From: Vicinamibacteria bacterium
Lineage (GTDB): Bacteria; Acidobacteriota; Vicinamibacteria; Marinacidobacterales; Marinacidobacteraceae
Direction of reading: 5' to 3'
Assembly: GCA_963555995.3 (NCBI GenBank)
Contig: OY821641.1
Location: 2,816,001 to 2,880,000 of the forward strand
DNA: 64,000 nucleotides
A program made the translations under genes and the position numbers. The notes under the pieces were generated by a model that was not told the DNA's origin, did no database searches, and worked only from the letters and a program-made list of their open reading frames with translations. This document shows positions 24,756 to 50,870 of the stretch, piece after piece (within the stretch, counting starts at the first letter, position 1; each line of letters starts with the position of its first letter).

Positions 24756-24788
24756 CGGCGCGGTGACGCCCACCGTCCGCATGGCGCG

Positions 24789-24840
24789 CCGGCTTGGAAC
24801 GCCGGTCTCCAGACCGGCACCGCGGTGCTCCGCACCGCGC
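24789..24840. repeat. REP-like double hairpin (inverted orientation) between convergent genes
   Basis: CTTGGAACGCCGGTCTCCAGACCGGCAC followed by CGCGGTGC-TCC-GCACCGCG. Confidence 0.8.
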
Positions 24841-24861
24841 ACGGCGCGGTGTTGACCCGCC

Positions 24862-28350: not shown

Positions 28351-28537
28351 CTAGCAGCCTGTGGCAAAACCCACGCGGCGTTCGACGGGCGATGCATCCC
28401 GGCTGAACCGCGCCTCTACGAGGCGCTCATCGTTGCGTTTCGGTCGGAATACACCCGGTATTCCTCCCTCACGCGCCTTGTCAGCCGGGCGCCTCGCCCG
28501 TCTCGGCGCTCACGTGGGTTTCACCACAGACTGCTAG
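28351..28537 (-). mobile_element. 187-bp palindromic MITE-like element, copy A
   Basis: CTAG-CAGCCTGTGG...CCACAGACTG-CTAG ends; core is the reverse complement of the one in copies B, C and D. Confidence 0.75.
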
Positions 28538-28684
28538 GCGCGGAACCGGAGCTACCGCCTGACGCCCGGACCGATCCTTCCGGCAGCGGAACGGCTCGCA
28601 CGGAAGTGCCGGAGCGAGCGCCAGCAACCAGCAAGGGCGAACCCGCTGTCGCCCGGTCCGCCCACCGGGTATAAACCCCGCCCT

Positions 28685-29707
28685 ATGGTCCGACTCGTAC
28701 ACGCTGGCGCCGCCTCGCTCATTCTTGCCCTCGCTGCGCAGGCGGCGGCGCAACCGCCCCCGGAGGTCCACCTCATCGGCACCGGGGGCACCATCTCCGG
28801 GGGCGCGGGCGGGCCGCTGAACGCCGGCGACCTCCGCGCCGCGCTGCCGGGCCTCGATTCCGTGGCTTCCGTCACCACCGAGGACTTCGTCCGCATCGGA
28901 AGTTCCCGGATGCATCCGGAACTCCAGTTCCAGCTCGCGGAGCGGATCGGCGCGGTCTTCGCCGAGCGGCCGGAACTGGCCGGGATCGTGGTGACCCACG
29001 GCACCGACTCGCTCGAGGAGACCGCGTTCCTGCTGGACCTCGTGCTGCCGTCCGGTCGTCCGGTCGTGTTCGCCGCCGCCCAGCGCCCGCCCCGGTACGA
29101 GGACTCGGACGGGCCGCGCAACCTGCTCGACGCGATCCGGGTCGCCGGTTCGGAACGAGGTCGCGGCCTGGGCGTGCTCGTCGTCCTGAACGGCCAGGTC
29201 CACGCCGCGCGCGAGGTGAAGAAGACCCACTCCATTGCCCTTCACGCGTTCGCCTCCCCGGACACCGGGCCGGTCGGCGCGGTGGACGAGGGGACGCTGC
29301 TGCTCTTCACGACTCCGGCCCGCCGCCTCCACCTTCCCGCCGCGCGCGTCGAGCCGGAGGTGGAACTGGTGCGGCTCACCGCCGGCGGCGGCGCCACCTC
29401 GATTCGCGCGGCGGCCCAGGCTGGCGCCCGGGGCCTGGTCGTGGAGGTGTTCGGCCGCGGCAACGCACCGCCGCCGGTCGCCGAGGCGGTGGATGCGGCG
29501 ATTCAGGCCGGCGCGGTGGTGGTGTTCGTGACCCGCACCGGGGCCGGCCGGGTGGTGCTCTCGGACGCCCAGCGGGAGCGGGGAATCCTTTCCGGGGGGG
29601 ACCTCGACGGCCTGAAGGCCCGCATCCTGCTCACCGTGGCGCTCGGCGCTGGACGGACCGCCGAAGAGATCGGCGCAGCCTTCTCGAGGCTGTCGGGCGC
29701 CGGGTAA
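28685..29707 (+). CDS. L-asparaginase (type II-like, signal peptide)
   Basis: GTGGTISG and THGTDSLEETA motifs, SDGPRNL, N-terminal signal peptide. Confidence 0.9.
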   Translation: MVRLVHAGAASLILALAAQAAAQPPPEVHLIGTGGTISGGAGGPLNAGDLRAALPGLDSVASVTTEDFVRIGSSRMHPELQFQLAERIGAVFAERPELAGIVVTHGTDSLEETAFLLDLVLPSGRPVVFAAAQRPPRYEDSDGPRNLLDAIRVAGSERGRGLGVLVVLNGQVHAAREVKKTHSIALHAFASPDTGPVGAVDEGTLLLFTTPARRLHLPAARVEPEVELVRLTAGGGATSIRAAAQAGARGLVVEVFGRGNAPPPVAEAVDAAIQAGAVVVFVTRTGAGRVVLSDAQRERGILSGGDLDGLKARILLTVALGAGRTAEEIGAAFSRLSGAG

Positions 29708-29729
29708 CCGGGGGCTCCGCGGCGGTTGG

Positions 29730-30650
29730 TCAGCGGAGCACGAGGCGGAGGGGCGGCCCCTCCCCGCGGGAGAGAACGACGGCTTCCGACGGCTCGAGCG
29801 TGACGACGGTGTAGTCCCCGACCCGGTCGCCGACCGCGACCAGGGTGGTCTCTCCCCGGTAGAAGAGGGCGGCCCGGACGGGAGTGCCGACACCGACGTC
29901 CACGAAGCCGTGGAGCTCCGGAGTTTCGGAGCGCGGCTCGGGCGGCGAGGTGGCCGTGTCGGGAGGCCGGTCGGGCAGGTCTTCCACGCCGTGATCCACC
30001 GCGGGCCCCGGCTCCGCCTCGACCGGCCCGGCGGCGGCCAGGGAAGCCGCCGCGTCCGGCCCCGGAACCGTCTCCAGCCAGGCGGCCAGTGCCTCCAGCC
30101 GCGGATCGTCCCCCAGCCGGCCCGCGTCCGCCGCCGTGAACGCCGCCGCCGGATCCGGCCACAGGACGAGAACCGACGCGGTGAGCGTGCCGAGGCCGCC
30201 CCGGACCCCGAGGGTCGCCCGCTCGACGCGGAGCGGCCATCCCCTCCCCTCCACAGCGGCCAGGAACCGCGACAGCGCATCGGGATCGCCCAGCGCCGTG
30301 ACCCCCGCCTCGGCGCCCAGCTTGCCCTCCGGGGGACGAACCAGTGGCTGGAGCCGGAGCTGCGAGAGGTCCACCCCGCTCACGCCGGCCGTCCGCACCA
30401 GGAACTCGCGGGTCCCCGCGGCGCTCGTGGGTGGCGGGGCCCGGCCGGCGAGCCGCTCCGAGACCCGAAGCAGGCGTTCGCGCCGCTCGCGTTGTTGCGC
30501 CGTCTGGACGCTCTCCCGAGCCGACCGGGTCTGCAGGTCGAACGCCGCGGCCAGATCGGTCGAGGAGTGCCTCGCCTCGCCCCAGACGAGCCAGGCGAGC
30601 GAAACGGACAACAGCGCGAGCAGAACCCGGAGGCGGAGGCGTTGGTCCAT
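29730..30650 (-). CDS. Divergent PilO/GspM-like membrane protein with a PilP/GspC-like C-terminus
   Basis: N-terminal TM plus coiled coil, Pro/Ala linker and VAVGDRVGDYTVVTL beta domain; third gene of a pilM/N-like operon. Confidence 0.5.
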   Translation of the reverse strand: MDQRLRLRVLLALLSVSLAWLVWGEARHSSTDLAAAFDLQTRSARESVQTAQQRERRERLLRVSERLAGRAPPPTSAAGTREFLVRTAGVSGVDLSQLRLQPLVRPPEGKLGAEAGVTALGDPDALSRFLAAVEGRGWPLRVERATLGVRGGLGTLTASVLVLWPDPAAAFTAADAGRLGDDPRLEALAAWLETVPGPDAAASLAAAGPVEAEPGPAVDHGVEDLPDRPPDTATSPPEPRSETPELHGFVDVGVGTPVRAALFYRGETTLVAVGDRVGDYTVVTLEPSEAVVLSRGEGPPLRLVLR

Positions 30651-30651
30651 G

Positions 30652-30838
30652 TCAGCGGCCGATGGAGAGAGTGACGCGAGCACCGAGAGCGGCGAGGCGC
30701 CCGGCTGACAAGGCGCGTGAGGGAGGAATACCGAGTGTATTCCGACCGAAACGCAACGATGAGGGCCGCGAAGCGGCACCGTTCAGCCGGGATGCATCGG
30801 CGTTCGAATGCCGCGTGACTCTCTTCATCGGCTGCTTA
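30652..30838 (+). mobile_element. 187-bp palindromic MITE-like element, copy B
   Basis: Core GGCGCCCGGCTGACAAGGCGCGTGAGGGAGGAATACCGAGTGTATTCCGACCGAAACGCAACG; fills the space between the upstream stop and downstream ATG. Confidence 0.75.
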
Positions 30839-31372
30839 CCGGCGTATGGCGAGTTGAGCGGTGATGCGGACCAGCGCCGTTCCGTCCGTCTGCCGGGTTT
30901 CGCTGATGACCTCGGTCGAGAGCACGGAATCGTGGCCCGCCAGCTCGGAAAGGAAGGCGGCGACGGCCGCCGCCGAGTCGGCGTCGGCCGCGATGACCGT
31001 CTCGACCCGGCCCGGCCCGGCGGCGGGCCGAACTTCGACACCGGCGACCCGGATTCCGGGCGGGGCGGTTCCCCGCACCGTGTCGAGGGCGACGCTGATG
31101 TCGGGGGCGTCCAGCACTCCCGCGAAGAGGAGGGCGGCCGCCTCCCGAGCCCGGGCCGGCTCGAGCGCCGGCGCAGGGGCCGCGGTTCCCGGCGTGGAGG
31201 AGGCGCCGGGGCCGGAAGACCCGGTGGCCGCGAGGTCCGCCCGCGTTCCCAGGAGCGACGCGCCACCCCAGAAGGACATCAGGAGCCCTCCCACGATCAG
31301 CACGTCGAGGGCCCGCAGGAATCCCGGCCGGGCGCCCTTCCCGAGTTGAATGCCGGCCGGTATGCGAGCCAT
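30836..31372 (-). CDS. Divergent PilN-like protein
   Basis: One TM segment followed by a ferredoxin-like pattern (LDTVRGTAPPGIRVAGVEV...AAVAAFLSELAGHDSV). Confidence 0.5.
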   Translation of the reverse strand: MARIPAGIQLGKGARPGFLRALDVLIVGGLLMSFWGGASLLGTRADLAATGSSGPGASSTPGTAAPAPALEPARAREAAALLFAGVLDAPDISVALDTVRGTAPPGIRVAGVEVRPAAGPGRVETVIAADADSAAAVAAFLSELAGHDSVLSTEVISETRQTDGTALVRITAQLAIRR

Positions 31373-31373
31373 G

Positions 31374-32309
31374 TCAAGCCTCGGAGACGGCGACGGGGGT
31401 CGGGTGGAGCGGCGCCGGCCGCTCGCCGGCCCGCCGCAGCAGCGCGGCGAGCGCTCCGTCCGTCACCGGAGATACTGCGGGAGTCCCCCCGCCTTCCTTG
31501 GCGTCCCGGGCCTCCACCGGCGGAGGCCCCGCCGAGCGCACGAGATCGGCGACCGCCGCCGCCCCGTTGCCCAGGATCGAGACGGCGTGGCTGCCGCCCT
31601 CGGTGGCCCGCCGGACGGCCAGCGCGGGAGGATCCGGGTCCAGGGCGGCGCGGAGCTTCATCCGGAAGCCCGTGAGACGTTCGCCCGACGCGGTGGCGAG
31701 AACGAAATGGCGCCGATGGAGCAACAGGAGAAGACGCCGGTCCGCCTTGCCCGCGGCGCGTCCCAGCCACTCGGGAAGATGAGCCAGACTCGTGGCGTCC
31801 ACCCACCGCACCCGCAGCCCCGCCGCTTCGGCGGCCGCCTCGTACTGCTGGGCGACCGGCGAACCCGTCACCGCACCGAGCACGGACCGGCGTCCGAAGG
31901 CACCGGAGGCCAGCGTTCCGAACCGGAAGCGCCCGTCGAGTTCGGACGGAGACGGCGCCGAAGTCGTGGCCAACCCCCGGACGAGCTCCGAGCGGAGCCG
32001 GCGCACTGCCCGCGAACCCGCGCCCTCGGAGAGCCCGGCGTGGGCGGCGCGGTCCGGCAACGCGATCACCGCGTCCCGGAAACCACCGTTCGGGGCGGCC
32101 AGCGCCCGCAGGGCGGCCTGTACCGCTCGGGCCGCCTCCACCGAGGACGCCAGGTTCGGCTCGGTCGGCGAAGGTGTGACGAAGTCCGCCGGCAAGCGCC
32201 AGCGGACCCAACGGCCGTCGCCGGTGCGGATCATCAGGTGGTTCCGCCGGAAGGTCATCGCGACGGCTCGGTCGCGAGGGCCGAGGCGAAGGAGGGGTAT
32301 CGAGGGCAA
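31374..32309 (-). CDS. Divergent PilM-like (actin-fold) protein
   Basis: LPADFVTPSPTEPNL, AVIALPD and QQYEAAAEAAGLRVRWVD resemble Acidobacteria-type PilM. Confidence 0.55.
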   Translation of the reverse strand: MPSIPLLRLGPRDRAVAMTFRRNHLMIRTGDGRWVRWRLPADFVTPSPTEPNLASSVEAARAVQAALRALAAPNGGFRDAVIALPDRAAHAGLSEGAGSRAVRRLRSELVRGLATTSAPSPSELDGRFRFGTLASGAFGRRSVLGAVTGSPVAQQYEAAAEAAGLRVRWVDATSLAHLPEWLGRAAGKADRRLLLLLHRRHFVLATASGERLTGFRMKLRAALDPDPPALAVRRATEGGSHAVSILGNGAAAVADLVRSAGPPPVEARDAKEGGGTPAVSPVTDGALAALLRRAGERPAPLHPTPVAVSEA

Positions 32310-32623
32310 GACTCCGACCGATGGGATGGATTTAGCCTAACTCGATTGACCCCTGGACCGTAGGTGCCGGAAGCGTTGCCCGCGAGACGAGAAGGAAACA
32401 GAACGCCCCGAGAATGGTAGGATCGGCGGTCGGGCTGCGGACGATTTCCGCCCGTGCGAACGAGCGCGGCGGCGATTCGCCCGCGTGACTACCGGCCGAA
32501 CGAGGTCCAGCGTTTCGAGTTGGCGCACGTCGTTCGGCAGCCGGTCCGGGCGCCGGGATCCAGACGATTCCCAAGGAGGTCCCGGCTCGGAGCGAATCCC
32601 TAACGTCCACAATCTGGAGCAGC

Positions 32624-34690
32624 ATGCGCGACTATCAGACCGCCGAACTTCGCAACCTCGCCGTCGTCGGACACGGAACGTCCGGCAAGACAACGCTCGT
32701 GTCGGCGCTCCTCTATGCCGCCGGCGCCGTGACCCGCCTTGCCCGCGTGGAAGACGGAAACACCACGACGGACTTCGAAGAGGACGAAATCGAACGCGGC
32801 ATCAGCCTGAGCGCGGCGCCCACGTACTTCGACTGGGACGGGGTCAAGGTCAACCTGGTGGACACGCCGGGGTACAGCAACTTCCTCACCGAGGCGAAGC
32901 TGGCCATGCCGGTCGCGGACACGGCCCTCATTGCGGTCTGCGCGGTGGACGGCGTGGGGGTCAACACCGAACGGGTCTGGAACTTCGCGGAAGAGAACGG
33001 GGCGGCCGCCATCTTCGCGATCACCCGGATGGACCGCGACCGCGCGTCGTTCGAACGCACCCTGAGTTCGATTCAGGAGACCTTCGGACGCACCGCGATC
33101 CCGGTCCAACTGCCCATCGGAAGCGAGTCCGGGTTCTCCGGGGTCGTGGACCTCATCACGATGAAGGCGATCAGCGGTCCCGGGCCGGACGGAAAGGGGG
33201 CGACGACGGGCGACGTGCCCGCCGAGCTTCAGGAGCAGGCCGAGGCGGCGCGCAACGAGCTCATGGAAATGATCGCCGAATCGGACGAGGAGCTGCTGGA
33301 CCGGTTCTTTTCCGAGGGAGAGCTGACGTCGGAGGAGATGATCCGGGGCCTCAGGACGGCGGTTGCCGCCCGTGCCATCTTCCCGGTGGCGGCGGTGACC
33401 GGAGCACACAACGTGGGAACCACGGCGCTCCTCGACCTGATCGTCGCGGCCGCCCCGGACCCGACCGGACGCGGGCCGGCGCGCGGGGTCAGCGGGGACG
33501 GGGAGCCGGTCGAGCGCGAGGTGGACGGCGGCGCGCCGGCCAGCGTCTACGTGTACAAGACCATCGCCGACCCCTTCGCCGGACGGTTGAGCCTCTTCCG
33601 GGTCATGACCGGCACCGTCGGCCCCGAGACCCAGCTCAAGAACCTGACCACCGGCGGGACCGGGCGGACCGGCGGCGTGAACGTCGTGAACGGGAAGGCC
33701 ATGGAGGCCGTATCGAAGCTGTCGGCCGGCGATCTCGGTTGTTTCGCCAAGCTGCGGGACACCTTCACGGGAGACACGCTCGGCGCTCAGGACGGGATCC
33801 GTTTCGTGCGCCCCGAAGTGCCGCACCCGGTCATCAGCTTCGCCATCGAGCCCAAGTCGAGAGGGGACGAGGAGAAGATCTCCCAGGCGCTGCAGCGGCT
33901 TCGCGAAGAAGACCTGACCCTGAAGTTCGAGCGCGACCAGGAGCTGCTCCTCTCGGGGACGGGGCAGCTCCACATCGAGGTCGTGGTGTCCCGGCTGAAG
34001 CGGAAGTTCGGAGTCGAAGTCGATCTGAAACCGCCGCGGGTGCCGTACCGCGAGACGATCACGGTGACCGCCGAGGCGCACGGGCGGCACAAGAAACAGA
34101 CCGGCGGACACGGCCAGTTCGCCGACTGCCACGTGCGCGTCGAGCCGCTCGAGCGCGGCGGGGAGTTCGAGTTCACGAGCGAGGTGGTGGGCGGCTCGAT
34201 CCCGCGCCAGTTCATCCCGGCGATCGAGAAGGGATTCCAGGAAGCCCGGCAGAAGGGATACCTCGCCGGCTATCCCGTCGTGGACTTCAAGGCGACGGTG
34301 TTCGACGGGAAGTTCCACACGGTCGATTCGTCGGAGATCGCGTTCAAGATCGCCGCGTCCCTCGCGTTCAAGGACGCGATGTCGAAGTGCCGGCCGACGC
34401 TGCTCGAACCGATCATGTCCGTCGTGATCACGGTTCCGGACGAGAACACGGGAGATGTCCTGGGCGATCTGAACTCGCGCCGCGGCCGCACCCAGGGCAT
34501 GGACCGGAAGGGCTCGCAGACCGCGATCACGGCGCAGGCGCCCATGGCCGAGATGCTCACCTACGAACCGACGCTGACCTCCCTCACCGGGGGACGCGGG
34601 GGCTTCCACATGGAGTTTTCCCACTACGACCCGGTGCCGGGGAATCTGGCGAAGGCCCTGATCGAGGCGTACCAGTCGCGGAACGACTAG
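32624..34690 (+). CDS. Elongation factor G paralog (EF-G2-like)
   Basis: GHGTSGKT, ERGISL, DTPGY, HKKQTGGHGQF and VDSSEIAF; full five-domain length. Confidence 0.9.
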   Translation: MRDYQTAELRNLAVVGHGTSGKTTLVSALLYAAGAVTRLARVEDGNTTTDFEEDEIERGISLSAAPTYFDWDGVKVNLVDTPGYSNFLTEAKLAMPVADTALIAVCAVDGVGVNTERVWNFAEENGAAAIFAITRMDRDRASFERTLSSIQETFGRTAIPVQLPIGSESGFSGVVDLITMKAISGPGPDGKGATTGDVPAELQEQAEAARNELMEMIAESDEELLDRFFSEGELTSEEMIRGLRTAVAARAIFPVAAVTGAHNVGTTALLDLIVAAAPDPTGRGPARGVSGDGEPVEREVDGGAPASVYVYKTIADPFAGRLSLFRVMTGTVGPETQLKNLTTGGTGRTGGVNVVNGKAMEAVSKLSAGDLGCFAKLRDTFTGDTLGAQDGIRFVRPEVPHPVISFAIEPKSRGDEEKISQALQRLREEDLTLKFERDQELLLSGTGQLHIEVVVSRLKRKFGVEVDLKPPRVPYRETITVTAEAHGRHKKQTGGHGQFADCHVRVEPLERGGEFEFTSEVVGGSIPRQFIPAIEKGFQEARQKGYLAGYPVVDFKATVFDGKFHTVDSSEIAFKIAASLAFKDAMSKCRPTLLEPIMSVVITVPDENTGDVLGDLNSRRGRTQGMDRKGSQTAITAQAPMAEMLTYEPTLTSLTGGRGGFHMEFSHYDPVPGNLAKALIEAYQSRND

Positions 34691-34730
34691 CCGTTCGGCA
34701 AGGCGCCGTGAGGCTGGGTGAGGTTACGAC

Positions 34731-34780
34731 GTGCGCGGTGCCGAGCACCGCGTGCCGGTCGGAGACCGGCGTTCCAAGCC
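34731..34780. repeat. REP-like double hairpin between convergent EF-G2 and rplQ genes
   Basis: CGCGGTGC-CGA-GCACCGCG followed by GCCGGTC-GGA-GACCGGCGTTCCAAG. Confidence 0.8.
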
Positions 34781-34786
34781 GTTCCG

Positions 34787-35140
34787 TTAGTCGACGAACT
34801 CGATGCGCGCCATGGGGGCGCCGTCGCCGTGGCGGGGACCGAGCTTGAGGATCCGGGTGTAGCCGCCGGGACGCTCCTGGAACCGGGGCGCCACCTCGCT
34901 GAAGAGATGGCGGACCACCGCTTTCCGGGGCAGGATCTGGAGCGCGCGGCGACGCGCCGCGAGGTCCGACCGGCGCCCGAGGGTGACGAGCCGCTCGACG
35001 AACGGACGCACTTCCTTCGCCTTGGCGAGCGTGGTGCGCAGGTGTCCGTGCTCGATCAGGGTGGCGGCCAGGTTCCGCAGCAGGGCGCGCCGGTGCGATG
35101 GCCGGCGGCCGAGCTTGCGGTGTGCCAACTGGTGACGCAT
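34787..35140 (-). CDS. rplQ: 50S ribosomal protein L17
   Basis: MRH...KLGR, RPGGYTRILK. Confidence 0.97.
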   Translation of the reverse strand: MRHQLAHRKLGRRPSHRRALLRNLAATLIEHGHLRTTLAKAKEVRPFVERLVTLGRRSDLAARRRALQILPRKAVVRHLFSEVAPRFQERPGGYTRILKLGPRHGDGAPMARIEFVD

Positions 35141-35141
35141 T

Positions 35142-36089
35142 TCAGCCCTGTCCCATTCCCAGCTTCAGGCCGAGACCGTCGAGAATCCTCTCGACTTCCT
35201 CGATGCTCTTCCGCCCGATGTTGCGCTCCCGCAGCAACTCCTGCTCGCTCTTGACCACGAGGTCGCCGATCGTGGCGATGTCGGCGTTCCGCAGTCCGTT
35301 GTACGCGCGGACCGAAAGCTGATCCGCGTAGTCGTCAATGGACGTGTTGCGATGCAGCTCGTAGGCCTTCTGCTCGTCGCTGATCACGACGTCTTCCGTC
35401 GCTTCTCCCTCGCCGCCCACGAAGATCCCCAGCATCTCCCGCAGCAGGCGGGCGGCGGTGGTGACCGCCTCCTGGGGCCGGATCGAACCGTTCGTGTGCA
35501 CGTCGATCACGAGCTTGTCGAGGTCCGTGTCCTGGCCCACCCGCGCCGGTTCGACCTTGTAGTTGACCTTGCGGACCGGAGAATGCGTCGAATCGAGAGG
35601 GATGTAGCCGACCTCCAGGTCCGTATCCCGGTTCCGCTCCGCCTGGATGTAGCCGCGGCCGTTCTTCACCCGCATCTCGATGTCCAGCTCGGCCGGCTGG
35701 GTGATGGTCGCGAGGTGCACGTCCGGGTCGAGGATCTCGACGTTGGGATCCGTCTCGATGTCTCCCGAGGTCAGGGAACCGGTCTTCCTTCCCTTGAGCC
35801 GGATGGTCCTCGGCTGCGCCCCGTGGAGCCGCAGGGGGATCCGCTTGATGTTCAGGATGATGTCGAGGGTGTCTTCCTTGACCCCGGGAATCGTGGACAT
35901 CTCGTGCTGCACACCGTCGAACTTGACCGCGGTGACCGCTGCGCCCTGAATGGAGGAAATCAGCAACCGGCGCAGGGCGTTGCCGATGGTGACCCCGTAG
36001 CCCCGCTCGAAGGGATGAGCGGAAAACCGACCGAAGTCGTCACTGCTGGTCTCGATGTTGAGGCCGCTGGGCCTCCGAAGTTCGGACAT
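35142..36089 (-). CDS. rpoA: RNA polymerase alpha subunit
   Basis: PFERGYGVTIGNALRR, HSPVRKVNY and alpha-CTD LSVRAYNGL...NIGRKS. Confidence 0.97.
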   Translation of the reverse strand: MSELRRPSGLNIETSSDDFGRFSAHPFERGYGVTIGNALRRLLISSIQGAAVTAVKFDGVQHEMSTIPGVKEDTLDIILNIKRIPLRLHGAQPRTIRLKGRKTGSLTSGDIETDPNVEILDPDVHLATITQPAELDIEMRVKNGRGYIQAERNRDTDLEVGYIPLDSTHSPVRKVNYKVEPARVGQDTDLDKLVIDVHTNGSIRPQEAVTTAARLLREMLGIFVGGEGEATEDVVISDEQKAYELHRNTSIDDYADQLSVRAYNGLRNADIATIGDLVVKSEQELLRERNIGRKSIEEVERILDGLGLKLGMGQG

Positions 36090-36120
36090 AAGCGCCGTCT
36101 CTCCTTTCCTTTCTGCCCCG

Positions 36121-36753
36121 TTAGCGCGAGTAGAGCTCGACGATGAGCTGGTCGCGGATCTTCAGTTGCGGGTCCTCGCCGGAGGGGAGCGTGACAACCC
36201 GTCCCGACGCCATGTCATCCTCTTCACGCTGAAGCCATTCCGGAACCGTGCGGCCTTCGGCGCGTTCCATGATCGCCTTGAAGAAATCCTTCTTGCGCGT
36301 CTTGTCGCAGACGCGGATCACGTCTCCCTCGTTGATGATGTTGGACGGAATGTCCACGCGTTTCCCGTTCACCTCGACGTGTCCGTGCCGGACGAAGAGC
36401 CGGGCCGCGGCCCGGGAGGGAGCCAGACCCAATCGGTAAACGGCGTTGTCGAGCCGGCGCTCCAGGAGCTGGAGCAGGAACGTTCCGGTCACGGCGCGCT
36501 CGCGTTCGGCGCGATCGAAGTACAGGCGGAACTGACGCTCGAGCAGGCCATAGGCGCGCTTCGCCTTCTGCTTCTCGCGAAGCTGAAGTCCGTAGCCCTG
36601 AACGCGGCTGCGACGGGTCTTCCCGTGGGCTCCGGGCGCGAAGTTGCGCTTGTCGATGGCGCACTTCGGGCTGAGGCAGCGATCGCCCTTCAGAAAGAGC
36701 TTGGCCCCCTCCCGGCGGCACAGCCGGCAGACGGGACCTCGATATCTCGCCAA
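36121..36753 (-). CDS. rpsD: 30S ribosomal protein S4
   Basis: MARYRGPVCRLCRREG, QLREKQK and LERRLDN. Confidence 0.97.
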   Translation of the reverse strand: MARYRGPVCRLCRREGAKLFLKGDRCLSPKCAIDKRNFAPGAHGKTRRSRVQGYGLQLREKQKAKRAYGLLERQFRLYFDRAERERAVTGTFLLQLLERRLDNAVYRLGLAPSRAAARLFVRHGHVEVNGKRVDIPSNIINEGDVIRVCDKTRKKDFFKAIMERAEGRTVPEWLQREEDDMASGRVVTLPSGEDPQLKIRDQLIVELYSR

Positions 36754-36762
36754 GATGTCCTC

Positions 36763-36988
36763 CTAACAGCCTGTGGCCACTGCCTGGCTGCGTCCGTTCG
36801 CGGCGCAACGCGCCGCGGGGGTGGGGTGTGGGGAAGGGATTCCCCTCCCCACGAAAGAACGTGGCATGAATCGCGCAGCGATTCGCGTCACCCCGTGGGG
36901 AAAGCGCCCCGCACGCACGACAGCCCCCAGTTTGGGCGTCCGTGACGTCCTGAGTACGGTGCGGGGTGCTTTTTCCACGGGCTGTTAG
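36763..36988 (+). mobile_element. 226-bp element with the same terminal inverted repeats but a different interior, copy E
   Basis: CTAACAGCCTGTGG...CCACGGGCTGTTAG ends enclosing four hairpins; lies between the rpsK stop and the rpsD SD. Confidence 0.65.
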
Positions 36989-37386
36989 TTCCGCCGTTTT
37001 TTGGGAGGGCGGCACCCGTTGTGTGGGATCGGGGTGACGTCCTTGATCGTCTTCACCTCGATTCCGGCGGCGGCTACGGCCCGGATCGCGGCTTCGCGTC
37101 CGGCGCCGGGGCCTTTCACCTTGACGTCCACATGCGTGCAGCCGAGGGCGCGGGCTTCGCGTGAGGCCGCGCCCGCCGCCTGCTGCGCCGCGAACGGCGT
37201 CTGTTTCCGGGAACCCTTGAAGCCCTGCGATCCGGCGCTGGCCCAGCAGACCACGTTTCCGGCCGGATCCGCGAAGGTGATGATCGTGTTGTGGTACGTC
37301 GCCTGGATGGATACGACGCCGGCGGTCAGCGTGCGCTTCTCGCGCTTCTTCCCGGTCCGGCGGCGGGCGGTCTTCTTCTTTGCCAT
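36985..37386 (-). CDS. rpsK: 30S ribosomal protein S11
   Basis: [14 protein letters not shown] and [14 protein letters not shown]. Confidence 0.97.
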
Positions 37387-37397
37387 GTCTTGTCTTC

Positions 37398-37763
37398 CTA
37401 GCGCCGGCGCATTCCGACCCGGCGGGGGCCGCGGCGGGTCCGGGCGTTGGTCTTGGTGCGCTGGCCCCGTGCCGGGAGGCCCCGGCGATGGCGGAGCCCG
37501 CGGTAGCACCCGATGTCCATGAGGCGCTTCAGGTCCATCGAGATCCGCTTCCTCAGGTCTCCTTCGACGCCGCCTTCGTCATCAATGGCCCGGCCGATCC
37601 GGCTCACCTCTTCCTCGGTCAGGTCGCTGACCCGGCGGTGGCGTTCGATCCCCACCCGGTCGAGGATGGTCACCGCGCGGTGGGATCCCACGCCGTAGAT
37701 GTACGTCAGCCCGATATCAATGCGCTTGGCGCGCGGCAGGTCAACGCCGGCAATTCTGGCCAT
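37398..37763 (-). CDS. rpsM: 30S ribosomal protein S13
   Basis: [10 protein letters not shown] and [12 protein letters not shown]. Confidence 0.97.
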
Positions 37764-37786
37764 CGGTCAGTCTCTCCCTGTTTCCA

Positions 37787-37900
37787 TCACCCTTGGCGCT
37801 GCTTGTGCTTCGGGTTTTCGCAGATCACCCGCACGACCCCTCGGCGGCGGACGATCTTGCACTTGGCGCAGATGCGCCGAACGGACGCGCGAACCTTCAT
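37787..37900 (-). CDS. rpmJ: 50S ribosomal protein L36 (Zn-ribbon type)
   Basis: Translated by eye: [37 protein letters not shown]; too short for the ORF track. Confidence 0.95.
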
Positions 37901-37910
37901 GCTGCCGCTC

Positions 37911-38132
37911 CTACTTGCACCGGTAAACGATCCGGCCGCGGCTCAGATCGTAGGGGGAAAGCTCCACCAGCACGCGGTCCCCCGGCAGTACCTTGATGAA
38001 GCTCTTCCGCATCTTTCCCGACACGTGGGCGAGCACCTTGTGATCGCCGGTATCGAGCTTGACCCGGAACATGGCGTTTGGCAGAGGCTCCATGACGGTC
38101 GCCTCCACGGAAATAGCGTCTTCCTTAGACAT
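37911..38132 (-). CDS. infA: Translation initiation factor IF-1
   Basis: [10 protein letters not shown] and [13 protein letters not shown]. Confidence 0.97.
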
Positions 38133-38916
38133 GATCTTCCTCTGAACCCGGGTTGGCGGGGTTCTGCCCTCTGGGCTCCGCCAGAATCCAGGGACCGCCC
38201 TCCATGACCGCGATGGATCGTTCGAAGTGCGCGGAGGCGCTGCCGTCCACGGTGACCACCGTCCAGCGATCCCGCTTCACGCGCACATCCGGGCTCCCGC
38301 GATTCACCATGGGTTCGATCGCGATCACGGCGCCCGGAATCAGGCGAGTCCGTTTCCCGGGATCATAGAAGTTCGGGATCCAGGGCTCCGCGTGCAGGCT
38401 CGTTCCGATCCCGTGTCCGCCGTATTCGCGCACCACGGAATAGCCGCGGCTCTCGGCATGGGTCTGCACGGCCTGCCCGATGTCCGAAACGCTGTTTCCG
38501 GGACGGGCGGCTCCGATTCCGGCGTAGAGAGCCCCCTCGGTCACCTGCAGCAGACGCGCCACTTCCTCGTCAATCCGGCCGACCGCGACGGTGGTCGCGT
38601 TGTCCCCGTAGTAGCCGTCCACGATGCAGCCGAAGTCGAGGCTCACGATGTCGCCCTCCTTCAGCTTCCGCCAACGGGACGGGATGCCGTGGACGACCTC
38701 GTCGTTGATCGAAACGCACAGGGAGGCGGGAAACCCGTGATATCCCTTGAAGGCGGGAGTCACGCCGTGGCGTCGCAGGTTGTCCGCCGCCACGCGGTCG
38801 AGGTGGGCCGTGGTCACGCCCGGCTCCACCGTGCGGGCGAGCAGCTCCAGCGTCTCCACGGTGATCGCGTTGGCCTGGTGGAGCTTGTCGAGCTCGACGT
38901 CGGAACGGGAGATCAC
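38125..38916 (-). CDS. map: Methionine aminopeptidase type I
   Basis: [24 protein letters not shown] and SAHFE; GTG start overlaps the adk stop. Confidence 0.95.
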
Positions 38917-39494
38917 GAGGTCACCAACTGCGCCGCTCTGAACGGCAGCGCGGCGCACAGACGGCTGAAGACGTCGTCGCGGGACCCGAGTCCCGAGACG
39001 CTCGCGGCGCGGTCCCCGTAGTAGTCGAGGAGCGGAAAGGACTCGGATTCGTAAACCTCGAGCCGGCGGCGGAAGGCTTCCTCGCTGTCGTCCTGCCGGC
39101 CGTCGGTCCCGCGCCGACCGCGGACCCGGGCGGCCAGTTCCTCCGCGGGGACGGCGATGTTCGCAATCCACTCGGTGGCGCCGAGCCTCGACAGGACCGC
39201 ACCCAGCGCCCGGGCCTGCGCCCGGTTCCGCGGATAGCCGTCGAGAATGAAACCCCGGCTGCAATCGGGAGCGGAGATCCTCTCCTCGACGATCCCCAGC
39301 ACGATCTCGTCGCTCACCAGGCGGCCGGCGGCCATGATGTCGCGGGCCGCCCTCCCGAGTTCCGTGCCGTCCGCGACCGCCTGCCGCAGAATGGCCCCGG
39401 TCGAGATGTGGGGCAACCCCAGCGACTCGGCGAGCCGCGCCGCCTGGGTCCCCTTTCCGGACCCGGGAGCGCCGAGAAGAATGACCGCGTTCAT
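38913..39494 (-). CDS. adk: Adenylate kinase (short, LID-less form)
   Basis: LGAPGSGKGTQ, HISTG, LDGYPR and GRQDD. Confidence 0.95.
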   Translation of the reverse strand: MNAVILLGAPGSGKGTQAARLAESLGLPHISTGAILRQAVADGTELGRAARDIMAAGRLVSDEIVLGIVEERISAPDCSRGFILDGYPRNRAQARALGAVLSRLGATEWIANIAVPAEELAARVRGRRGTDGRQDDSEEAFRRRLEVYESESFPLLDYYGDRAASVSGLGSRDDVFSRLCAALPFRAAQLVTS

Positions 39495-39511
39495 GTCAGC
39501 TCCGGCACACC

Positions 39512-40893
<1,382 letters not shown>

Positions 40894-40897
<4 letters not shown>

Positions 40898-41439
40898 TTC
40901 TCGTCTTCGGAGTTGCCGGCGTCCGCGCCGATGAAGGCCACGGTCCCGCCGGCGGCTTCGATCTTCCGGCGCGCGGAAGCGCTGAAGGCGTGGGCGTGGA
41001 CGGTGAGCCGCTTCTCCAACTCACCTCCGCCGAGGACCTTGATGCGGAACGGACGGGGGCGGACCAGCAGGGGAGATCCCTCCGGGTGAGGCCGGTAGAT
41101 CCGCGCTCCGTGAATCAGGCGGGCGGCCACCAGTTCGATCTCGCCGACGGTCGAACCGTCTTCGAAACGGTTGAGGTCACCCAGATTGACGACCTCCTGA
41201 CGGGTTCTGAAGATGTTCGTGAACCCGCGCTTCGGCACGCGGCGCACGAGCGGCATCTGGCCGCCCTCGAAGCCACGGCGGAGCGAGTACCCGGACCGCG
41301 ACTTGGCTCCCTTGTGGCCGCGCCCGGCAGTCTTGCCGGTGCCTGATCCCGGGCCGCGTCCCACCCGCTTGCGGGGCCGGACGGCGCCCTCGGGCGGCGC
41401 CAGTTCATGAAGGCTCACTTGCTCGTCCTCATTCACCAT
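40894..41439 (-). CDS. rplO: 50S ribosomal protein L15
   Basis: [20 protein letters not shown] and FEGGQMPL. Confidence 0.96.
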
Positions 41440-41683
41440 CGGCCGGAACGGCCGTCTCTTGCGCTTGCGTCGTTTCGACGATGCGGACGAGGTGCGGAAC
41501 GCGCCGCACCATCCCGCGGATCATCGGGTTGTCCGGCCGGGAAGCGGTCGCTCCCAGTCGGCGAAGCCCCAGGCCCTTCACGACTTCGCGCTGGTAGCGG
41601 GTCGTGCCCGCCAGGCCGCGCACGAGTTGCACGACGATCCGGGGCTGGCCCGGGCTGGCCGCGGTGTCTTCTGGCTGCGTCAT
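41429..41683 (-). CDS. rpmD: 50S ribosomal protein L30
   Basis: GLGLRR...[16 protein letters not shown]; position between rpsE and rplO. Confidence 0.9.
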
Positions 41684-41687
41684 GGCG

Positions 41688-42245
41688 CTAGGCGCGGATC
41701 TCCGCCTCGATGTGGCTCACGTCCTTCCCCCGAAGCTCCGCCACCGCGGCCTTCGAGCGGAGCGAGAGGAGCGCGACCATCGTCGCCTCCACCACGTTCT
41801 TCGGATTGGCGGTTCCGAGCGACTTGGTCAGGATGTCCTTGATTCCGGCGAGCTCGATGACGGCGCGCACCGGGCCGCCCGCGATCACCCCGGTCCCCTC
41901 CGAGGCCGGCTTGAGCAGGACCCGGCCCGCTCCGAACACGCCCACCACCTCGTGAGCGATGGTGGTTCCCTCGCGGGGGACCATCGTCAGGTTCTTCTTG
42001 GCGATCTCGATTCCCTTCTTGATCGCCGCCGGCACCTCGCGCGCCTTGCCAAGGCCGAAACCCACCCGGCCGTCCTCGTTTCCAACCACGACCAGCGCGG
42101 AAAAGGAGAGGTTCTTGCCACCCTTGACCACCTTGGTCACCCGGTTGATCGAGACGACCTTGTCCTTGAGATCGGGATCGCCGGTGCGCTCCACCTGCGT
42201 GTTGCGCGAACCGCTGCGAGGCCTCGATCGGCCGCCCGCGTCCAT
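41688..42245 (-). CDS. rpsE: 30S ribosomal protein S5
   Basis: [11 protein letters not shown] and [12 protein letters not shown]; alternative start at 42254. Confidence 0.96.
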
Positions 42246-42247
42246 GT

Positions 42248-42601
42248 TCAGCACTGAATCCCTCCATTCCTCACCGCGTCGGCAAGGGCCTTGATCCGGC
42301 CGTGGTACTGGGACCCGCCGCGATCGAAGACGACGGTCTCGATGCCGGCGGCGCGGGCCCGCTCGGCCAGCTTCTCGCCGACCAGGGCGGCGCCCCGGGC
42401 GTTTCCGCCGGCCTCGATCCCGGTCTCGCGGCTTCCCGCGGCAACGAGGGTCCTGCCGGCAGCGTCGTCAATCACCTGCGCATAGATGTGCTTCAACGAG
42501 CGATAGACTGCGAGCCGCGGGCGCTCGGCAGTGCCGGCGATCTTCCGACGGATGCGGGCATGGATGCGCCGCCTGCGCTGGCGGCGGGTCGTGATTCGCA
42601 T
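42248..42601 (-). CDS. rplR: 50S ribosomal protein L18
   Basis: [16 protein letters not shown] and VFDRGG..YHGR. Confidence 0.96.
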
Positions 42602-42634
42602 GGCTCTTCGGTCCTCGAGCTCTCTTCCTCGGGA

Positions 42635-43168
42635 TCAGGCCCCGGTCTTTCCTGCCTTCTTGATGAGGCGTTCGCCGGTGTAGCGAACCCCCTTCTGCTT
42701 GTACGGGTCCGGCTTGCGGAGCGCGCGGATGCGCGCCGCCACCTGCCCGACGGCCTGCTTGTCGGCGCCCGACACGACGACGTGGGTGTTCTTCTCGACC
42801 CGGACGTCGATCCCGTCGGGCAACGTGAACTCGATGGGATGGGAATACCCCAGCGCGAAGGAAACGTTCCGTCCCTTCACCTGCGCCCGGTAGCCGACTC
42901 CCACGATGTCCAGCTCCTTCTGGAAGCCCTCGGAGACGCCGGTCACCGCGTTCGCGAGCAGCGCCCGGGTGAGCCCCCAGTAGGCCCGGTTCGCGGACGT
43001 TTCCCGAAGGGACACCTGGGCCACGCTGCCGTCGAGCTTCACCTCGATTCCGGGGAGGAGCGGACTCGTGAGGACGCCCTTCGGGCCCTTCACGCGGACC
43101 TCGGAACTCGCGATGGAGATCGAGACCCCGGACGGAACGGGGATCGGCTTGGCGCCTATGCGAGACAT
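42635..43168 (-). CDS. rplF: 50S ribosomal protein L6
   Basis: MSRIGAKPI and [13 protein letters not shown]. Confidence 0.97.
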
Positions 43169-43170
43169 GA

Positions 43171-43357
43171 TCAACAGCCTTTGGTGAAACTCACGTGAGC
43201 GCCGAGCCCGGTGAGGCGCCCGGCTGACAAGGCGCGTGAGGGAGGAATATCGAGCGTATTTCGACCGAAACGCAACGCAGAGCGGAGCGAAGCGGAGTGT
43301 TTCAGCCGGGATGGATCGCCGGGCGAACGCCGCGTGAGTTTTGCCACAGGCTGTTTA
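43171..43357 (+). mobile_element. 187-bp palindromic MITE-like element, copy C (rpsH-rplF spacer)
   Basis: AACAGCCTTTGGTGAAACTCACGTG...CGCGTGAGTTTTGCCACAGGCTGTT arms around the shared core. Confidence 0.75.
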
Positions 43358-43364
43358 CCTCGGG

Positions 43365-43760
43365 CTACCACACCTGGCAAAGGACTTCGCCGCCCACGCC
43401 GAGATGGCGCGCCTGGCGGCCCGTCATCACCCCGCGGGAGGTCGAAAGCAGGGTGACACCGAGCCCTCCCTGCGCCTTGGGAATCTTCTGGTGCGAGACG
43501 TAGACACGGGTGCCCGGCCTCGAAATGCGCTTCAGTCCACTCAGCGCGTCCCGGTTGCCGGGCAGGCGCCGCAACTTGATGCGGATCGCGTCCTGCGGCG
43601 GAGCGGAGCGGCGCTCCCAACCGTCCACGTATCCCTCCTCGTGGAGGATGCGGGCGATCTCCTCCTTCAGCTTCGACGCGGGAATCTCGACGAAGTCGTG
43701 CCGCGCCTGAATCGCGTTGCGAATCCGGGTGAGCATGTCGGCCACCGGGTCAGACCACAT
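43365..43760 (-). CDS. rpsH: 30S ribosomal protein S8
   Basis: DPVADMLTRIRNA, RISRPG and GGEVLC. Confidence 0.97.
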   Translation of the reverse strand: MWSDPVADMLTRIRNAIQARHDFVEIPASKLKEEIARILHEEGYVDGWERRSAPPQDAIRIKLRRLPGNRDALSGLKRISRPGTRVYVSHQKIPKAQGGLGVTLLSTSRGVMTGRQARHLGVGGEVLCQVW

Positions 43761-43772
43761 CAGCGCGCCTCC

Positions 43773-43958
43773 CTACCAACTCGCCTTGATGACGCCGGGG
43801 ATCTCCCCCGCGAGCGCCAGCTTCCGGAAGCACAGGCGGCAGAGCCCGAACTTCCGGAGATAGGCCCGGGGGCGGCCACAGCTCAGGCAGCGGTTGTAAC
43901 GCCGCACCTCGAACTTGGGCCGCTTCCTTGCCTTGGCAATGAGTGATTTCTTCGCCAA
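43773..43958 (-). CDS. rpsN: 30S ribosomal protein S14 (short, Zn-binding type Z)
   Basis: RCLSCGRPR and CRLCFR; 61 aa. Confidence 0.96.
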
Positions 43959-43976
43959 AACCGTTTCCTCTGCTTC

Positions 43977-44253
43977 TTAACAGCCTGTGGATGAAGTGAC
44001 GTGAGTACCGAGAACGCCGAGGCGCCCGGCTGACAAGGCGCGTGAGGGAGGAATACCGAGCGTATTCCGACCGAAACACAACGCAGAGCGCCTCGTAGAG
44101 GCGCGGTTCAGGCGGGATGCATCGGCGTTCGCGTCGTTAGCGGGGCGTGAGCCCCGCGCAGACCCCGGAGCGAGAGGGATCGGGGACGGGTTCACCCGGC
44201 TCCTGTCCCTCTTGGCTCGGGAATGCCGCGTGACTTTGTCCACAGGCTGTTAC
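43977..44253 (+). mobile_element. 277-bp MITE-like element, copy D (187-bp unit plus 90-bp insert; rplE-rpsN spacer)
   Basis: TAACAGCCTGTGG...CCACAGGCTGTTA ends, shared core, extra sequence at 44132-44221. Confidence 0.75.
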
Positions 44254-44262
44254 CTCTGATGA

Positions 44263-44811
44263 CTACGCTTCCCGGCGGGCGAACGGCATCCCGAAGGCGC
44301 GGAGCAGCTCTCGCGCGTCCCCGTCGCTCGTCGCGGTCGTGCAGATGGTCACGTTCATCCCGAGCGTCCTCTCGATCTTCGAGTAGTCGATCTCGGGGAA
44401 CACGGATTGGTCCGTCAGACCCAGGGTGTAGTTGCCCCGGCCGTCGAAGGCCCGGTCCGAGACACCGCGAAAGTCGTGCACCCGAGGCAGCGCGATGTTG
44501 ATCAGCCGGTCCATGAATTCGTACATCCGGATTCCGCGCAGGGTGACCCGCGCGCCCACCGGCATGCCGTCCCGGATCTTGAAGTTGGCGATGGACTTCC
44601 GGGCCCTGGTCACCACCGGCCTTTGTCCGGTGATCGCCGTCAGGTCCGCGACCGCGGCATCAATGAACTTGTGCTCCCGCGCCCCTTCACCGACGCCCAT
44701 GTTGACGACGACCTTGGTAACCCGAGGCACGGCGTGCACGCTGGCGATCTGCAGTCGGGTGCGCAGATCGGGAGCGATGGTCTCGCGATACCGGGAACGA
44801 AGGCGGCTCAC
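44263..44811 (-). CDS. rplE: 50S ribosomal protein L5
   Basis: KVVVNMGVGE, ITGQRP and FDGRGNYTLG. Confidence 0.97.
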   Translation of the reverse strand: MSRLRSRYRETIAPDLRTRLQIASVHAVPRVTKVVVNMGVGEGAREHKFIDAAVADLTAITGQRPVVTRARKSIANFKIRDGMPVGARVTLRGIRMYEFMDRLINIALPRVHDFRGVSDRAFDGRGNYTLGLTDQSVFPEIDYSKIERTLGMNVTICTTATSDGDARELLRAFGMPFARREA

Positions 44812-50833: not shown

Positions 50834-50870
50834 CGGTTGAAACTCGCTTCGGCGTTCCCGTGCGGCCCCG

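Follow-up and report, generated by a model that had tools for sequence, protein, structure and literature searches.

A gene-less miniature element with IS1182-like ends and a core that folds on one strand, in and beyond the ribosomal operon of a marine acidobacterium

Background

What kind of repeat sits between the genes of a ribosomal operon, and how did it come to be there? The question is raised by a stretch of 64,000 nt (contig OY821641.1, positions 2,816,001 to 2,880,000; hereafter the window) from the genome of a Vicinamibacteria bacterium (G000, to which all counts given as genome-wide refer). A sequence-only reading had described five elements in it (28351-28537, 30652-30838, and 43171-43357, 187 nt each; 43977-44253, 277 nt; 36763-36988, 226 nt), taking them for either a non-autonomous mobile element mobilised in trans or a domesticated structured module. 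These lengths and coordinates were reproduced, as were the core common to four copies and the likeness of the fifth element (36763-36988) in its ends only; the strand of the core was corrected, since the copy at 28351-28537 bears it on the minus strand. The interiors of miniature inverted-repeat elements (MITEs) are usually regarded as leftovers of insertion sequences (IS) (PMC11602168, available portion).

Results

The repeat is a gene-less MITE with a unit of 179 bp and a 4-bp YTAR flank on each side, in which terminal inverted repeats, forming a long terminal stem, enclose a short non-coding interior; tandem copies are spaced 183 bp apart. Genome-wide there are 74 ungapped full-length copies and 101 core-covering matches falling in 93 loci, a family of about 100 copies. 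The core loci are split 44 to 49 between the replichores (boundary at the GC-skew extremes) and thus show no bias. Matches to the MITE are present in 15 of 15 congeners and in 32 of 41 genomes, G000 counted among the 41. Folding of the + strand of 43171-43357 gave a z score of −9.0, so the structure is not due to chance. Assignment to a described RNA family was rejected, as no Rfam model reached its gathering score in the window; for 43100-44300 at E ≤ 1 the sole match was a 36-nt piece (E 0.66), and a scan of 20 related loci placed only tRNAs above cut-off. A Vibrio antisense RNA family touches one locus of the type of the enterobacterial ERIC repeats (see below), with 32 bits against a cut-off of 96.

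Copy 1 (28355..28533, minus strand, 179 bp) is flanked by CTAG at 28351-28354 and 28534-28537; it is 97% identical to the consensus, its nearest neighbour in the genome is 100% identical (same interior), and it is a young copy. Copy 2 (30656..30834, + strand, 179 bp) is divergent (83% to the consensus); the TAA stop of an ORF at 30836-31372 on the minus strand and the right flank of this copy overlap. Copy 3 (43175..43353, + strand, 179 bp) lies in the S8-L6 spacer with its strongly folding strand opposite to the mRNA, and copy 4 (43981..44249, + strand, 269 bp) lies in the L5-S14 spacer and consists of the 179 bp plus a two-hairpin insert of about 90 bp (44131..44221, + strand). This insert marks a subfamily and is found genome-wide in eight near-identical copies (at least 96.7%, that of copy 4 included) and five weaker matches. 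The fifth element (36767..36984, 218 bp) combines the MITE ends with a different interior; BLAST matches it at 14 other places in the genome, and it represents a second family that shares these ends. It is inserted at the S11 stop codon, and its downstream flank retains the ribosome-binding sequence of S4. Three of the five elements are in the ribosomal operon (spacers L5-S14, S8-L6, and S11-S4), as originally described, and copies 1 and 2 sit beyond L17 and an EF-G paralogue. The assembled contigs of sequencing runs X6 and X17, whose source is related strains, skip copies 1-4.

In copy 3, the conserved folded core (43207..43321, + strand) comprises an AAGGCG/CAACGC internal loop, tandem GA pairs, an apical hairpin, and a side-arm hairpin (43282..43298, + strand) with a C-GNA-G loop at 43288-43292. 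Model R1 locates the same core at 28387-28501 (−), 30688-30802 (+), and 44013-44127 (+), and scores the four window cores at 47.8-52.6 bits. The core covaries, with compensating changes maintaining the pairing, and the interior folds on one strand only, G-T pairs being tolerated and A-C pairs not: departures from the consensus Watson-Crick pairs amount to 113 G-T against 26 A-C cells, or 36 against 17 distinct variants. C>T changes outnumber G>A changes 76 to 10 at paired sites, whereas at unpaired sites the ratio is 3 to 49, and this reversal shows that the skew is not a mutational strand bias. The side-arm loop reads C-G-N-A-G in 62 of 74 copies, with all four bases occurring at N. Tandem GA pairs and G-U wobbles are equally typical of RNA and DNA. 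According to the available portion of PMC3201870, d(GNA) loops with C:G closure are unusually stable in DNA, and a cGUAg triloop in an RNA structure is also mentioned there. The folded core likely works as a single-stranded DNA hairpin.

The absence of a transposase from the window was borne out, as the matches to PF13751, PF01609, PF01797, and PF13358 all lie elsewhere. A search for a transposase gene between the same ends led to an IS of 1,515 bp, present in three copies outside the window (one at G000:C1:362858-364372) that are identical inside and have the direct 4-bp flanks TTAA/TTAA, TTAG/TTAG, and GTAA/GTAA. Its ORF of 475 aa (G000:C1:362923-364350), which looks intact, encodes DUF772 and DDE domains, and its best NCBIfam match among seven is NF033551 (IS1182) with 146.2 bits, IS5 models scoring lower. 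Since this is below the cut-off of 270 bits, strict IS1182 membership was rejected and the element is called IS1182-like; its layout (DUF772 and DDE domains, inverted repeats of 15-16 bp, 4-bp direct repeats, 1.5 kb) matches that of the IS1182 family, of which ISPse1 has a 16-bp inverted repeat and a 4-bp direct repeat (PMC3281130, available portion). The partner IS targets NTAR, whereas IS1272 replaces stem-loops (PMC5678879, available portion).

In 24 of 74 copies the left 16-mer of the MITE is the same as the IS end, and in 47 it has no more than one mismatch to it; the right end shows two to four differences from the right 16-mer of the IS in 68 of 74. In related IS of congeners the first 10 bases of the ends are the same, and four of eight such loci examined directly adjoin another such end. 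The transposase was found in 3/15 congeners, against 15/15 for the MITE, many of the assemblies being fragmented. Model R1 found no core inside the IS of G000; run on 24 transposase loci it gave three matches, all in the 1.5-kb flanks outside the transposase match and none at the G000 IS locus. The core was hence rejected as a leftover of the IS interior, and a true deletion derivative of the IS (348 bp) exists separately. The 4-bp flanks of the MITE are identical in 35 of 74 copies (CTAG/CTAG or TTAA/TTAA in 32, TTAG/TTAG in three); overall, flank pair 3/185 is complementary in 71/74 copies and pair 2/186 in 50/74.

Empty orthologous sites exist in congeners at all five window positions, and clean empty/filled comparisons give a net gain of 183 bp, which fits a 4-bp duplication. 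Copies 1 and 2 are each absent from 5/5 congeners tested. Copy 3 is shared with G011 alone among 15 congeners; the L5-S14 spacer is empty in 14/15, and G006 carries another member of the subfamily there. The S11-S4 site is filled in 8/15 congeners and empty in 7/15, so that the element is present in 9/16 genomes, and clean empty alleles occur on scattered branches of the tree, the sister pair G007/G011 (100% support) among them. An in-genome search for paralogous empty sites returned mostly noise, and nested MITE-in-MITE cases may be a single event. The many copies, the empty orthologous sites, and the presence in this genome of an IS whose ends match those of the repeat support the earlier reading of a non-autonomous element mobilised in trans.

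That the family had invaded the ribosomal superoperon as a special target was not upheld. The window holds four core loci where 1.6 are expected (P = 0.07), and two of an estimated ~29 operon spacers are filled, compared with 3.1% of co-directional spacers genome-wide (P = 0.23); enrichment was rejected as not significant. Four of 16 genomes carry no element in the stretch of the operon examined. The copies found among the ribosomal genes resemble ordinary insertions. When the 93 gene 3′ ends that point towards a core locus are considered, 30 lie within −6 to +2 nt of that locus; the YTAR site itself contains TAA and TAG, so stop codons are frequent points of insertion, and the gene is preserved.

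With genes as called within this analysis, the strongly folding strand is antisense to the mRNA in 41 cases and sense in 20 (P = 0.01), and in the ribosomal operons of 16 genomes all 11 core copies, at seven sites, have the antisense arrangement. The strongly folding strand is thus mostly absent from host mRNA. The host likely purges the orientation that would place a strong hairpin in polycistronic mRNA, so that surviving copies would mostly carry the weak strand in the message; the bias shows how essential operons tolerate hairpin insertions.

Across about ten phyla, the same covarying core occurs in elements with at least three dissimilar types of ends. The MITE core and ERIC share the motif order AAGGCG, tandem GA, short apical hairpin, tandem GA, CAACGC, and two core forms, short and long, differ by about one helical turn (motif spacing of 7 nt or 18-19 nt). 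One pattern retrieved 117 elements, of which 50 are ERIC-type, 60 other long-form, and seven short-form; one short form carries the end type of the window family. The ERIC comparison set consisted of 12 E. coli K-12 copies. Single-copy similarity to ERIC is weak (best E 0.11 in 36 kb), and R1 gave no match to the whole E. coli K-12 genome under stricter filters. The central hairpin motifs of ERIC/IRU are therefore present, though single-copy model scores are weak, and full membership was rejected on length (127 bp), the ERIC terminal repeats, and the TA flanks. The repeat had initially been left without a named family; its ends now tie it to an IS1182-like transposase and its core to ERIC.

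Partners of the other end types were sought at 50 transposase loci from five genomes. One IS4-family element (L301) has ends that begin like the CTAGTG type, a weak lead, and no autonomous partner of the AGGG type was found among these loci; the other end types presumably belong to unrelated transposases. A PriA primosome assembly site (ColE1 ssiA, phiX174 pas) was rejected as a counterpart, since R1 and R2 found nothing significant in ColE1 or phiX174. A suspected 14-mer of ColE1, at the presumed position of the site, ties with or trails unrelated 14-mers; the available portions of PMC3167613 and PMC5778457 give no site sequence.

Discussion

The reading preferred here, with a probability of roughly 0.7, is that of a gene-less MITE of about 100 copies which the IS1182-like transposase, encoded between matching ends, mobilises in trans, and whose interior is a single-stranded DNA hairpin aiding its spread. 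The three IS copies would supply the candidate mover, judging from the shared ends, and the copies in the ribosomal operon would be YTAR insertions, often at stop codons. On this account the fold is probably DNA rather than RNA and would serve the element rather than the host; that the arm with the GNA loop is lacking in most distant relatives of the core counts against a DNA fold. Because elements with different ends carry the same core, the core probably interacts with a conserved host factor and not with one particular transposase.

The element might be a MITE whose fold acts as RNA, either as an element-borne transcript or as a signal for the processing or stability of host mRNA, such as has been reported for Correia and ERIC, a reading we consider unlikely. 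The core does contain G-U-type wobbles and purine-rich internal loops, four of 20 scanned related loci are long-form cores beside a tRNA gene (three on the strand of the tRNA), and cleavage by RNase III has been reported for transcripts that contain Correia, as have RNase E effects for ERIC (PMC10969869, PMC3184786, available portions). Against this stand the under-representation of the folding strand in host mRNA (20 vs 41, and 0/11 in ribosomal operons), the C-GNA-G loop of the side arm, and an apical loop whose sequence varies among relatives; a search of 42900-44400 turned up neither a sigma-70-like promoter nor a terminator, a test of little power in this phylum. Less probable still is a domesticated role in which the operon copies tune the expression of S14, L6, and S4, to which we give very little weight. 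It would account for copy 3 being identical between G000 and G011 at 177 of 179 bases (P about 6e-5 at a rate of 8%) when identity at third codon positions is 85-88% in S8, L6, and L5, for a change in it, unseen in the other 73 copies, that places AAGG 9 nt before the L6 start, and for the S11-S4 element in 9/16 genomes. Recent lateral transfer of the spacer explains the 177/179 equally well, however, and the spacers are empty in 14/15 (S8-L6), 14/15 (L5-S14), and 7/15 (S11-S4) congeners, among them the close sister of G011; the four genomes with no element in the stretch examined and the lack of enrichment over the genome also speak against it. Domestication, as once suggested, is thus unsupported for the family, with the S8-L6 copy as a possible exception.

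The flanks bear on a further route, in which copies whose ends derive from the IS1182-like element now move without target duplication. A 183-bp unit would be inserted centrally into YT^AR, either through a reaction of the recombinase or HUH type or with donor flanks carried along, precise excision being possible. Where MITE flanks are non-identical, the two inner bases on each side are canonical and the outer ones vary: of the 13 copies lacking T at position 2, 12 have T at position 185, and of the 17 lacking A at position 186, 16 have A at position 3. Site pairs show the same (empty TTGA vs filled TTAA..TTGA; empty CTAG vs filled CTAA..TTAG), a pattern unpredicted by plain duplication. The scattered empty S11-S4 alleles, including G007/G011, the one Y1 (HUH) transposase gene in G000, and the insertion of IS1272, of the IS1182 family, without duplication (PMC5678879, available portion) point the same way. 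We nevertheless regard the route as improbable: the IS copies show true direct 4-bp repeats, 35 MITE copies have identical flanks, flank decay in old copies may suffice, and the empty sites are blurred, their source genomes being about 90% identical.

The MITE with its IS1182-like partner resembles several known systems. REP/REPIN sequences with RAYT transposases are strand-specific hairpins with fixed mismatches, a likeness that holds if the single-stranded DNA reading is right; the MITE differs in having ends of the IS type and 4-bp flanks in common with a DDE transposase. With Nezha/ISNpu3, a MITE and its cognate IS (PMC3184786, available portion), it shares the absence of genes, terminal repeats in common with the IS, short target repeats, filled and empty sites, and a stable long hairpin. 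Unlike in Nezha-type MITEs, the interior is not a deleted IS piece, as R1 finds no core inside the IS, and the partner is IS1182-like. Correia/NEMIS of Neisseria (PMC10969869, available portion), compared by description, is likewise an abundant hairpin MITE at gene ends for which co-transcription is possible, but the strongly folding strand of the MITE studied here is mostly kept out of mRNA. ERIC/IRU of Enterobacteriaceae and Vibrionaceae (PMC3184786, PMC10969869, available portions) has the core motifs in the same order, intergenic locations, and internal variants; it differs in length (127 vs 179 bp), flanks (TA vs YTAR), and ends, between the two motifs its stem exceeds that of the MITE by 11-12 nt per side, and the side arm is missing.

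A MITE family in a marine acidobacterial genus is ordinary, and its ribosomal placement is not special. What would matter is a core that lies outside the IS, is preserved through compensatory substitutions, folds on one strand, and is found again in many phyla in the company of different ends, reaching ERIC by its motifs. No publication on a shared core folding on one strand was found, and the available portions of the ERIC literature give no function for the ERIC centre. Tentatively, and with less confidence than the reading of the MITE itself, the ERIC centre could belong to a single-stranded DNA module that is strand-specific and pan-bacterial, in which two fixed motifs in helical phase recruit a conserved host protein and which spreads gene-less elements on any transposase supplying the ends. 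Should the core promote mobility in cis, a MITE with a matching transposase makes the question directly testable, ERIC less readily so; G000, with about 100 module copies and an intact-looking transposase with the same ends, is a natural test pair. A separate REP-like repeat family is also present in the window.

Anatomy, copy number, and spread of the element

All five elements were recovered at the positions given in the sequence-only reading, which had also described four of them as sharing a core; the core is indeed common to the four, although in the copy at 28351–28537 it lies on the minus strand. The unit is a gene-less MITE of 179 bp running from CAGCC to GGCTG with 4-bp YTAR on either side, and tandem arrays have a period of 183 bp. 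Copies 1 to 4 occupy 28355–28533 (minus strand), 30656–30834, 43175–43353, and 43981–44249 (plus strand), the 90-bp insert in copy 4 being the mark of a subfamily. Three of the five elements sit in the L5–S14, S8–L6, and S11–S4 spacers, and the other two beyond L17 and an EF-G paralogue. An Rfam search of the window returned no family at gathering score. The fifth element, which has the same ends as the MITE, is a member of a second family with 15 BLAST matches. Across this family (window 36767–36984; host contig 1601247, 1174884, 812861, and others), ends are the same or variable, and the interior carries GNA-loop hairpins and one G-rich/C-rich hairpin. In several congeners (loci L062, L013, L140, and L144 of G008, G006, G013, and G001, respectively), members of both families contain an 18-nt insert with a short hairpin at varying places.

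BLAST against the host's own genome (3.8 Mb) identified 74 ungapped full-length copies, and a profile search yielded 126 matches at 108 loci, with the core covered by 101 matches at 93 loci. Identity to the consensus ranged from 77 to 98%, and the nearest neighbour was at least 99% identical for 20 of the 74, so that both young and old copies are present. Matches occurred in 15/15 congeners and in 32 of 41 genomes searched (host counted). On the host contig, a copy is nested at the same position in the core of another at 861647–861896, 278025–278391, 2494378–2494607, and 2890298–2890666; the nesting is directly visible in three of the four cases, which may derive from a single event. Sponge and marine metagenomes are among the sequencing runs in which the stretch occurs, and a marine acidobacterium is the probable host.

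Likely mobilizing element and target sites

Searching the genome for paired end sequences retrieved a 1,515-bp IS with MITE ends in three copies with identical interiors, flanked by TTAA/TTAA, TTAG/TTAG, and GTAA/GTAA. Its 475-aa product combines DUF772 and DDE domains and is best matched among NCBIfam models by IS1182 (146 bits); as this is below the cut-off of 270, the IS is termed IS1182-like. PMC3281130 lists an IS1182 element whose IRs are 16 bp and whose DRs are 4 bp long. The left 16-mer of the IS is exact in 24/74 MITE copies and within one mismatch in 47/74, and the right end differs from the right 16-mer at 2–4 positions in 68/74. The core is absent from the IS. Searches recovered relatives of the transposase from 11/41 genomes, yet from only 3/15 congeners; IS ends in congeners share the first 10 bases, and four of eight IS loci examined there directly adjoin another such end. 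The repeat is regarded as a genuine and abundant MITE, for which a likely transposase has been identified. The host contig also carries a 348-bp internally deleted IS derivative and, beside IS copy 2, a decayed, frameshifted relative (3647890–3648237 and 2718414–2718954), four equal-scoring copies of another DDE (PF01609) transposase (1699007, 2145923, 3742172, and 3792565), and one Y1 (HUH) transposase gene (751513–751743). The window further contains an abundant short palindromic repeat of REP-like type, separate from the MITE, at 346–408, 2373–2641, 6568–6630, 12036–12381, 24777–24861, 34712–34786, and 54302–54518.

Identical 4-bp flanks were observed in only 35/74 MITE copies, and the inner two flank bases on each side are far more constant than the outer two. 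Both observations speak against a plain duplication and would suit ends of IS1182-like origin on copies that now move by another route without target duplication, a route that we regard as improbable, favouring mobilization by the IS1182-like transposase. Insertion without duplication is described for IS1272 (PMC5678879). The L5–S14 spacer is empty in 14/15 congeners, with G006 carrying another subfamily member at that place, and the S8–L6 spacer is likewise empty in 14/15. Copies 1 and 2 are absent in 5/5 congeners tested. The S11–S4 spacer is filled in 8/15 and empty in 7/15, the empty allele having the S11 stop within CTAG. Filled and empty S11–S4 alleles alternate on a ten-gene operon tree of 21 genomes (none dropped), even within a sister pair of 100% support; this pattern requires that the element was cleanly lost or was gained more than once, or that alleles were exchanged.

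Copy 3 is identical at 177/179 positions between the host and congener G011 (L002:1501–1687), whereas third codon positions nearby are 85–88% identical. Its insertion displaced the usual purine-rich stretch of the L6 start, and a change placing AAGG shortly before that start occurs in both genomes and in none of the other 73 host copies. This one copy may have been domesticated, or the spacer may have been transferred recently.

Distribution of the core and relation to ERIC

Other families of the order carry this core, with its AAGGCG and CAACGC motifs, between unlike ends. A pattern scan of GTDB yielded at least 121 core loci; among the 80 titles listed, those with the same ends belong to Vicinamibacteria and 'Candidatus Marinacidobacterium', and the listed titles comprise Acidobacteriota, Desulfobacterales, Myxococcales, Gammaproteobacteria, Latescibacterota, Gemmatimonadetes, Planctomycetaceae, Kiritimatiellae, Elusimicrobiota, and Actinomycetota. 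Most records are MAGs and possibly misbinned; Desulfosarcina variabilis and one Nocardioides record have no MAG title. By a rough rule, the 121 loci listed have ends of window type (29), CTAGTG (27), AGGG (32), or other/none (33). The ends of an IS4-family element in another genome searched (L301:994–2330, G041) start like the CTAGTG type, which carries the core in other phyla, making it a lead for the mover of that type.

For the core alignment, 54 of 67 non-redundant sequences were used, and 13 were omitted (mostly arm-bearing near-duplicates, long inserts, and doubtful matches). Paired cells amounted to 92.6% (76.7% shuffled; 28–46% slid), with changes on both sides at 19/29 pairs; conservation at positions fixed by the search pattern is built in. 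Model R1, derived from the aligned cores without ERIC, matched 24/121 genomes sampled from the phylum.

A published primer (PMC5520297) served to retrieve 12 ERIC copies from E. coli K-12. In 36 kb, the top ten R1 matches were ten of these 12, in the correct orientation and register, with a best E-value of only 0.11, and a genome-wide R1 search of E. coli K-12 found nothing. Conversely, an ERIC-built model gave 54 matches at E ≤ 10 (best 0.005) on 100 of the 121 listed loci: 35 at the core on the right strand, one on the wrong strand, and 18 elsewhere. Stronger evidence comes from a metagenome scan whose pattern omitted AAGGCG, designed after both spacing forms (7 nt and, as in ERIC, 17–19 nt) were known. 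It returned at least 117 loci, among those listed 50 ERIC-type, 60 other long-form, and seven short-form, the last representing all three end types. AAGGCG lay within 45 nt upstream in 87/117 (4/117 in a control window), and its distance mirrored the downstream spacer (7/7 or 17–19/17–19), with no downstream spacer of 9–15 nt among the 117 listed. Per side, the forms differ by 11–12 nt, which is roughly one helical turn. The likeness could stem from common descent or from a shared binding partner. Four long-form cores that lack ERIC ends are immediate neighbours of tRNA genes (L378, L400, L458, and L404; three on the same strand, one opposite).

MITEs that combine the ends of a cognate IS with empty sites and long hairpins are well documented (PMC3184786, PMC10969869), and review literature places ERIC in Enterobacteriaceae and Vibrionaceae. 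A large survey reports MITE conservation mainly within genera and treats interiors as IS-deletion products (PMC11602168). In literature mostly outside subscription journals, no paper was found that describes this family or the occurrence of one ERIC-type core between unlike MITE ends. The strand-specific, ERIC-related core is a variant on a known kind, and its predicted function is testable.

Folding and orientation

One strand (+) folds better in 74/74 copies with RNA and DNA parameters alike. Departures from consensus Watson–Crick pairs were G–T in 113 cells and A–C in 26, counting related copies more than once (36 vs 17 distinct variants). One-sided C>T and G>A changes numbered 76 vs 10 at paired and 3 vs 49 at unpaired sites; this opposite ratio indicates that the excess reflects the fold, not mutational strand bias. 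The side-arm loop reads C-G-N-A-G in 62/74 copies, with all four N, and loops of the C-GNA-G type are unusually stable in DNA (PMC3201870).

Among copies in co-directional spacers, the folding strand opposed the mRNA in 41 and matched its sense in 20 (P = 0.01), with 19 vs 4 in short and 22 vs 16 in long spacers (Fisher P = 0.055). It was opposite in 4/4 window copies and in 11/11 core copies inside ribosomal operons (7 sites), and of the same sense in copies just after L17 in three genomes. These counts speak against a function in host mRNA and suggest that a strong hairpin is selected against inside operons. We infer that the fold likely acts as single-stranded DNA aiding mobility.

Placement in the ribosomal operon

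The initially proposed 'invasion' of the ribosomal superoperon is not supported as a special event: the window has 4 core loci vs 1.6 expected (P = 0.07), and two of about 29 operon spacers are filled (P = 0.23), with 3.1% of co-directional spacers containing a core locus genome-wide (on our own gene calls). At least one element of either family lies inside the operon in 12/16 genomes of the genus and none in four (stretches of G003 and G015 being incomplete), in eight different spacers (fusA–S10, L23–L2, S19–L22, L5–S14, S8–L6, L6–L18, S5–L30, and S11–S4). Of 93 gene ends that face a core locus, 30 are in contact with it, and such contact is expected because the target contains TAA or TAG. 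The placement in the operon is incidental. In the window, fusA is directly followed by S10 with no tuf between (50501–52943), and a second EF-G paralogue lies after L17 on the opposite strand (32624–34690).
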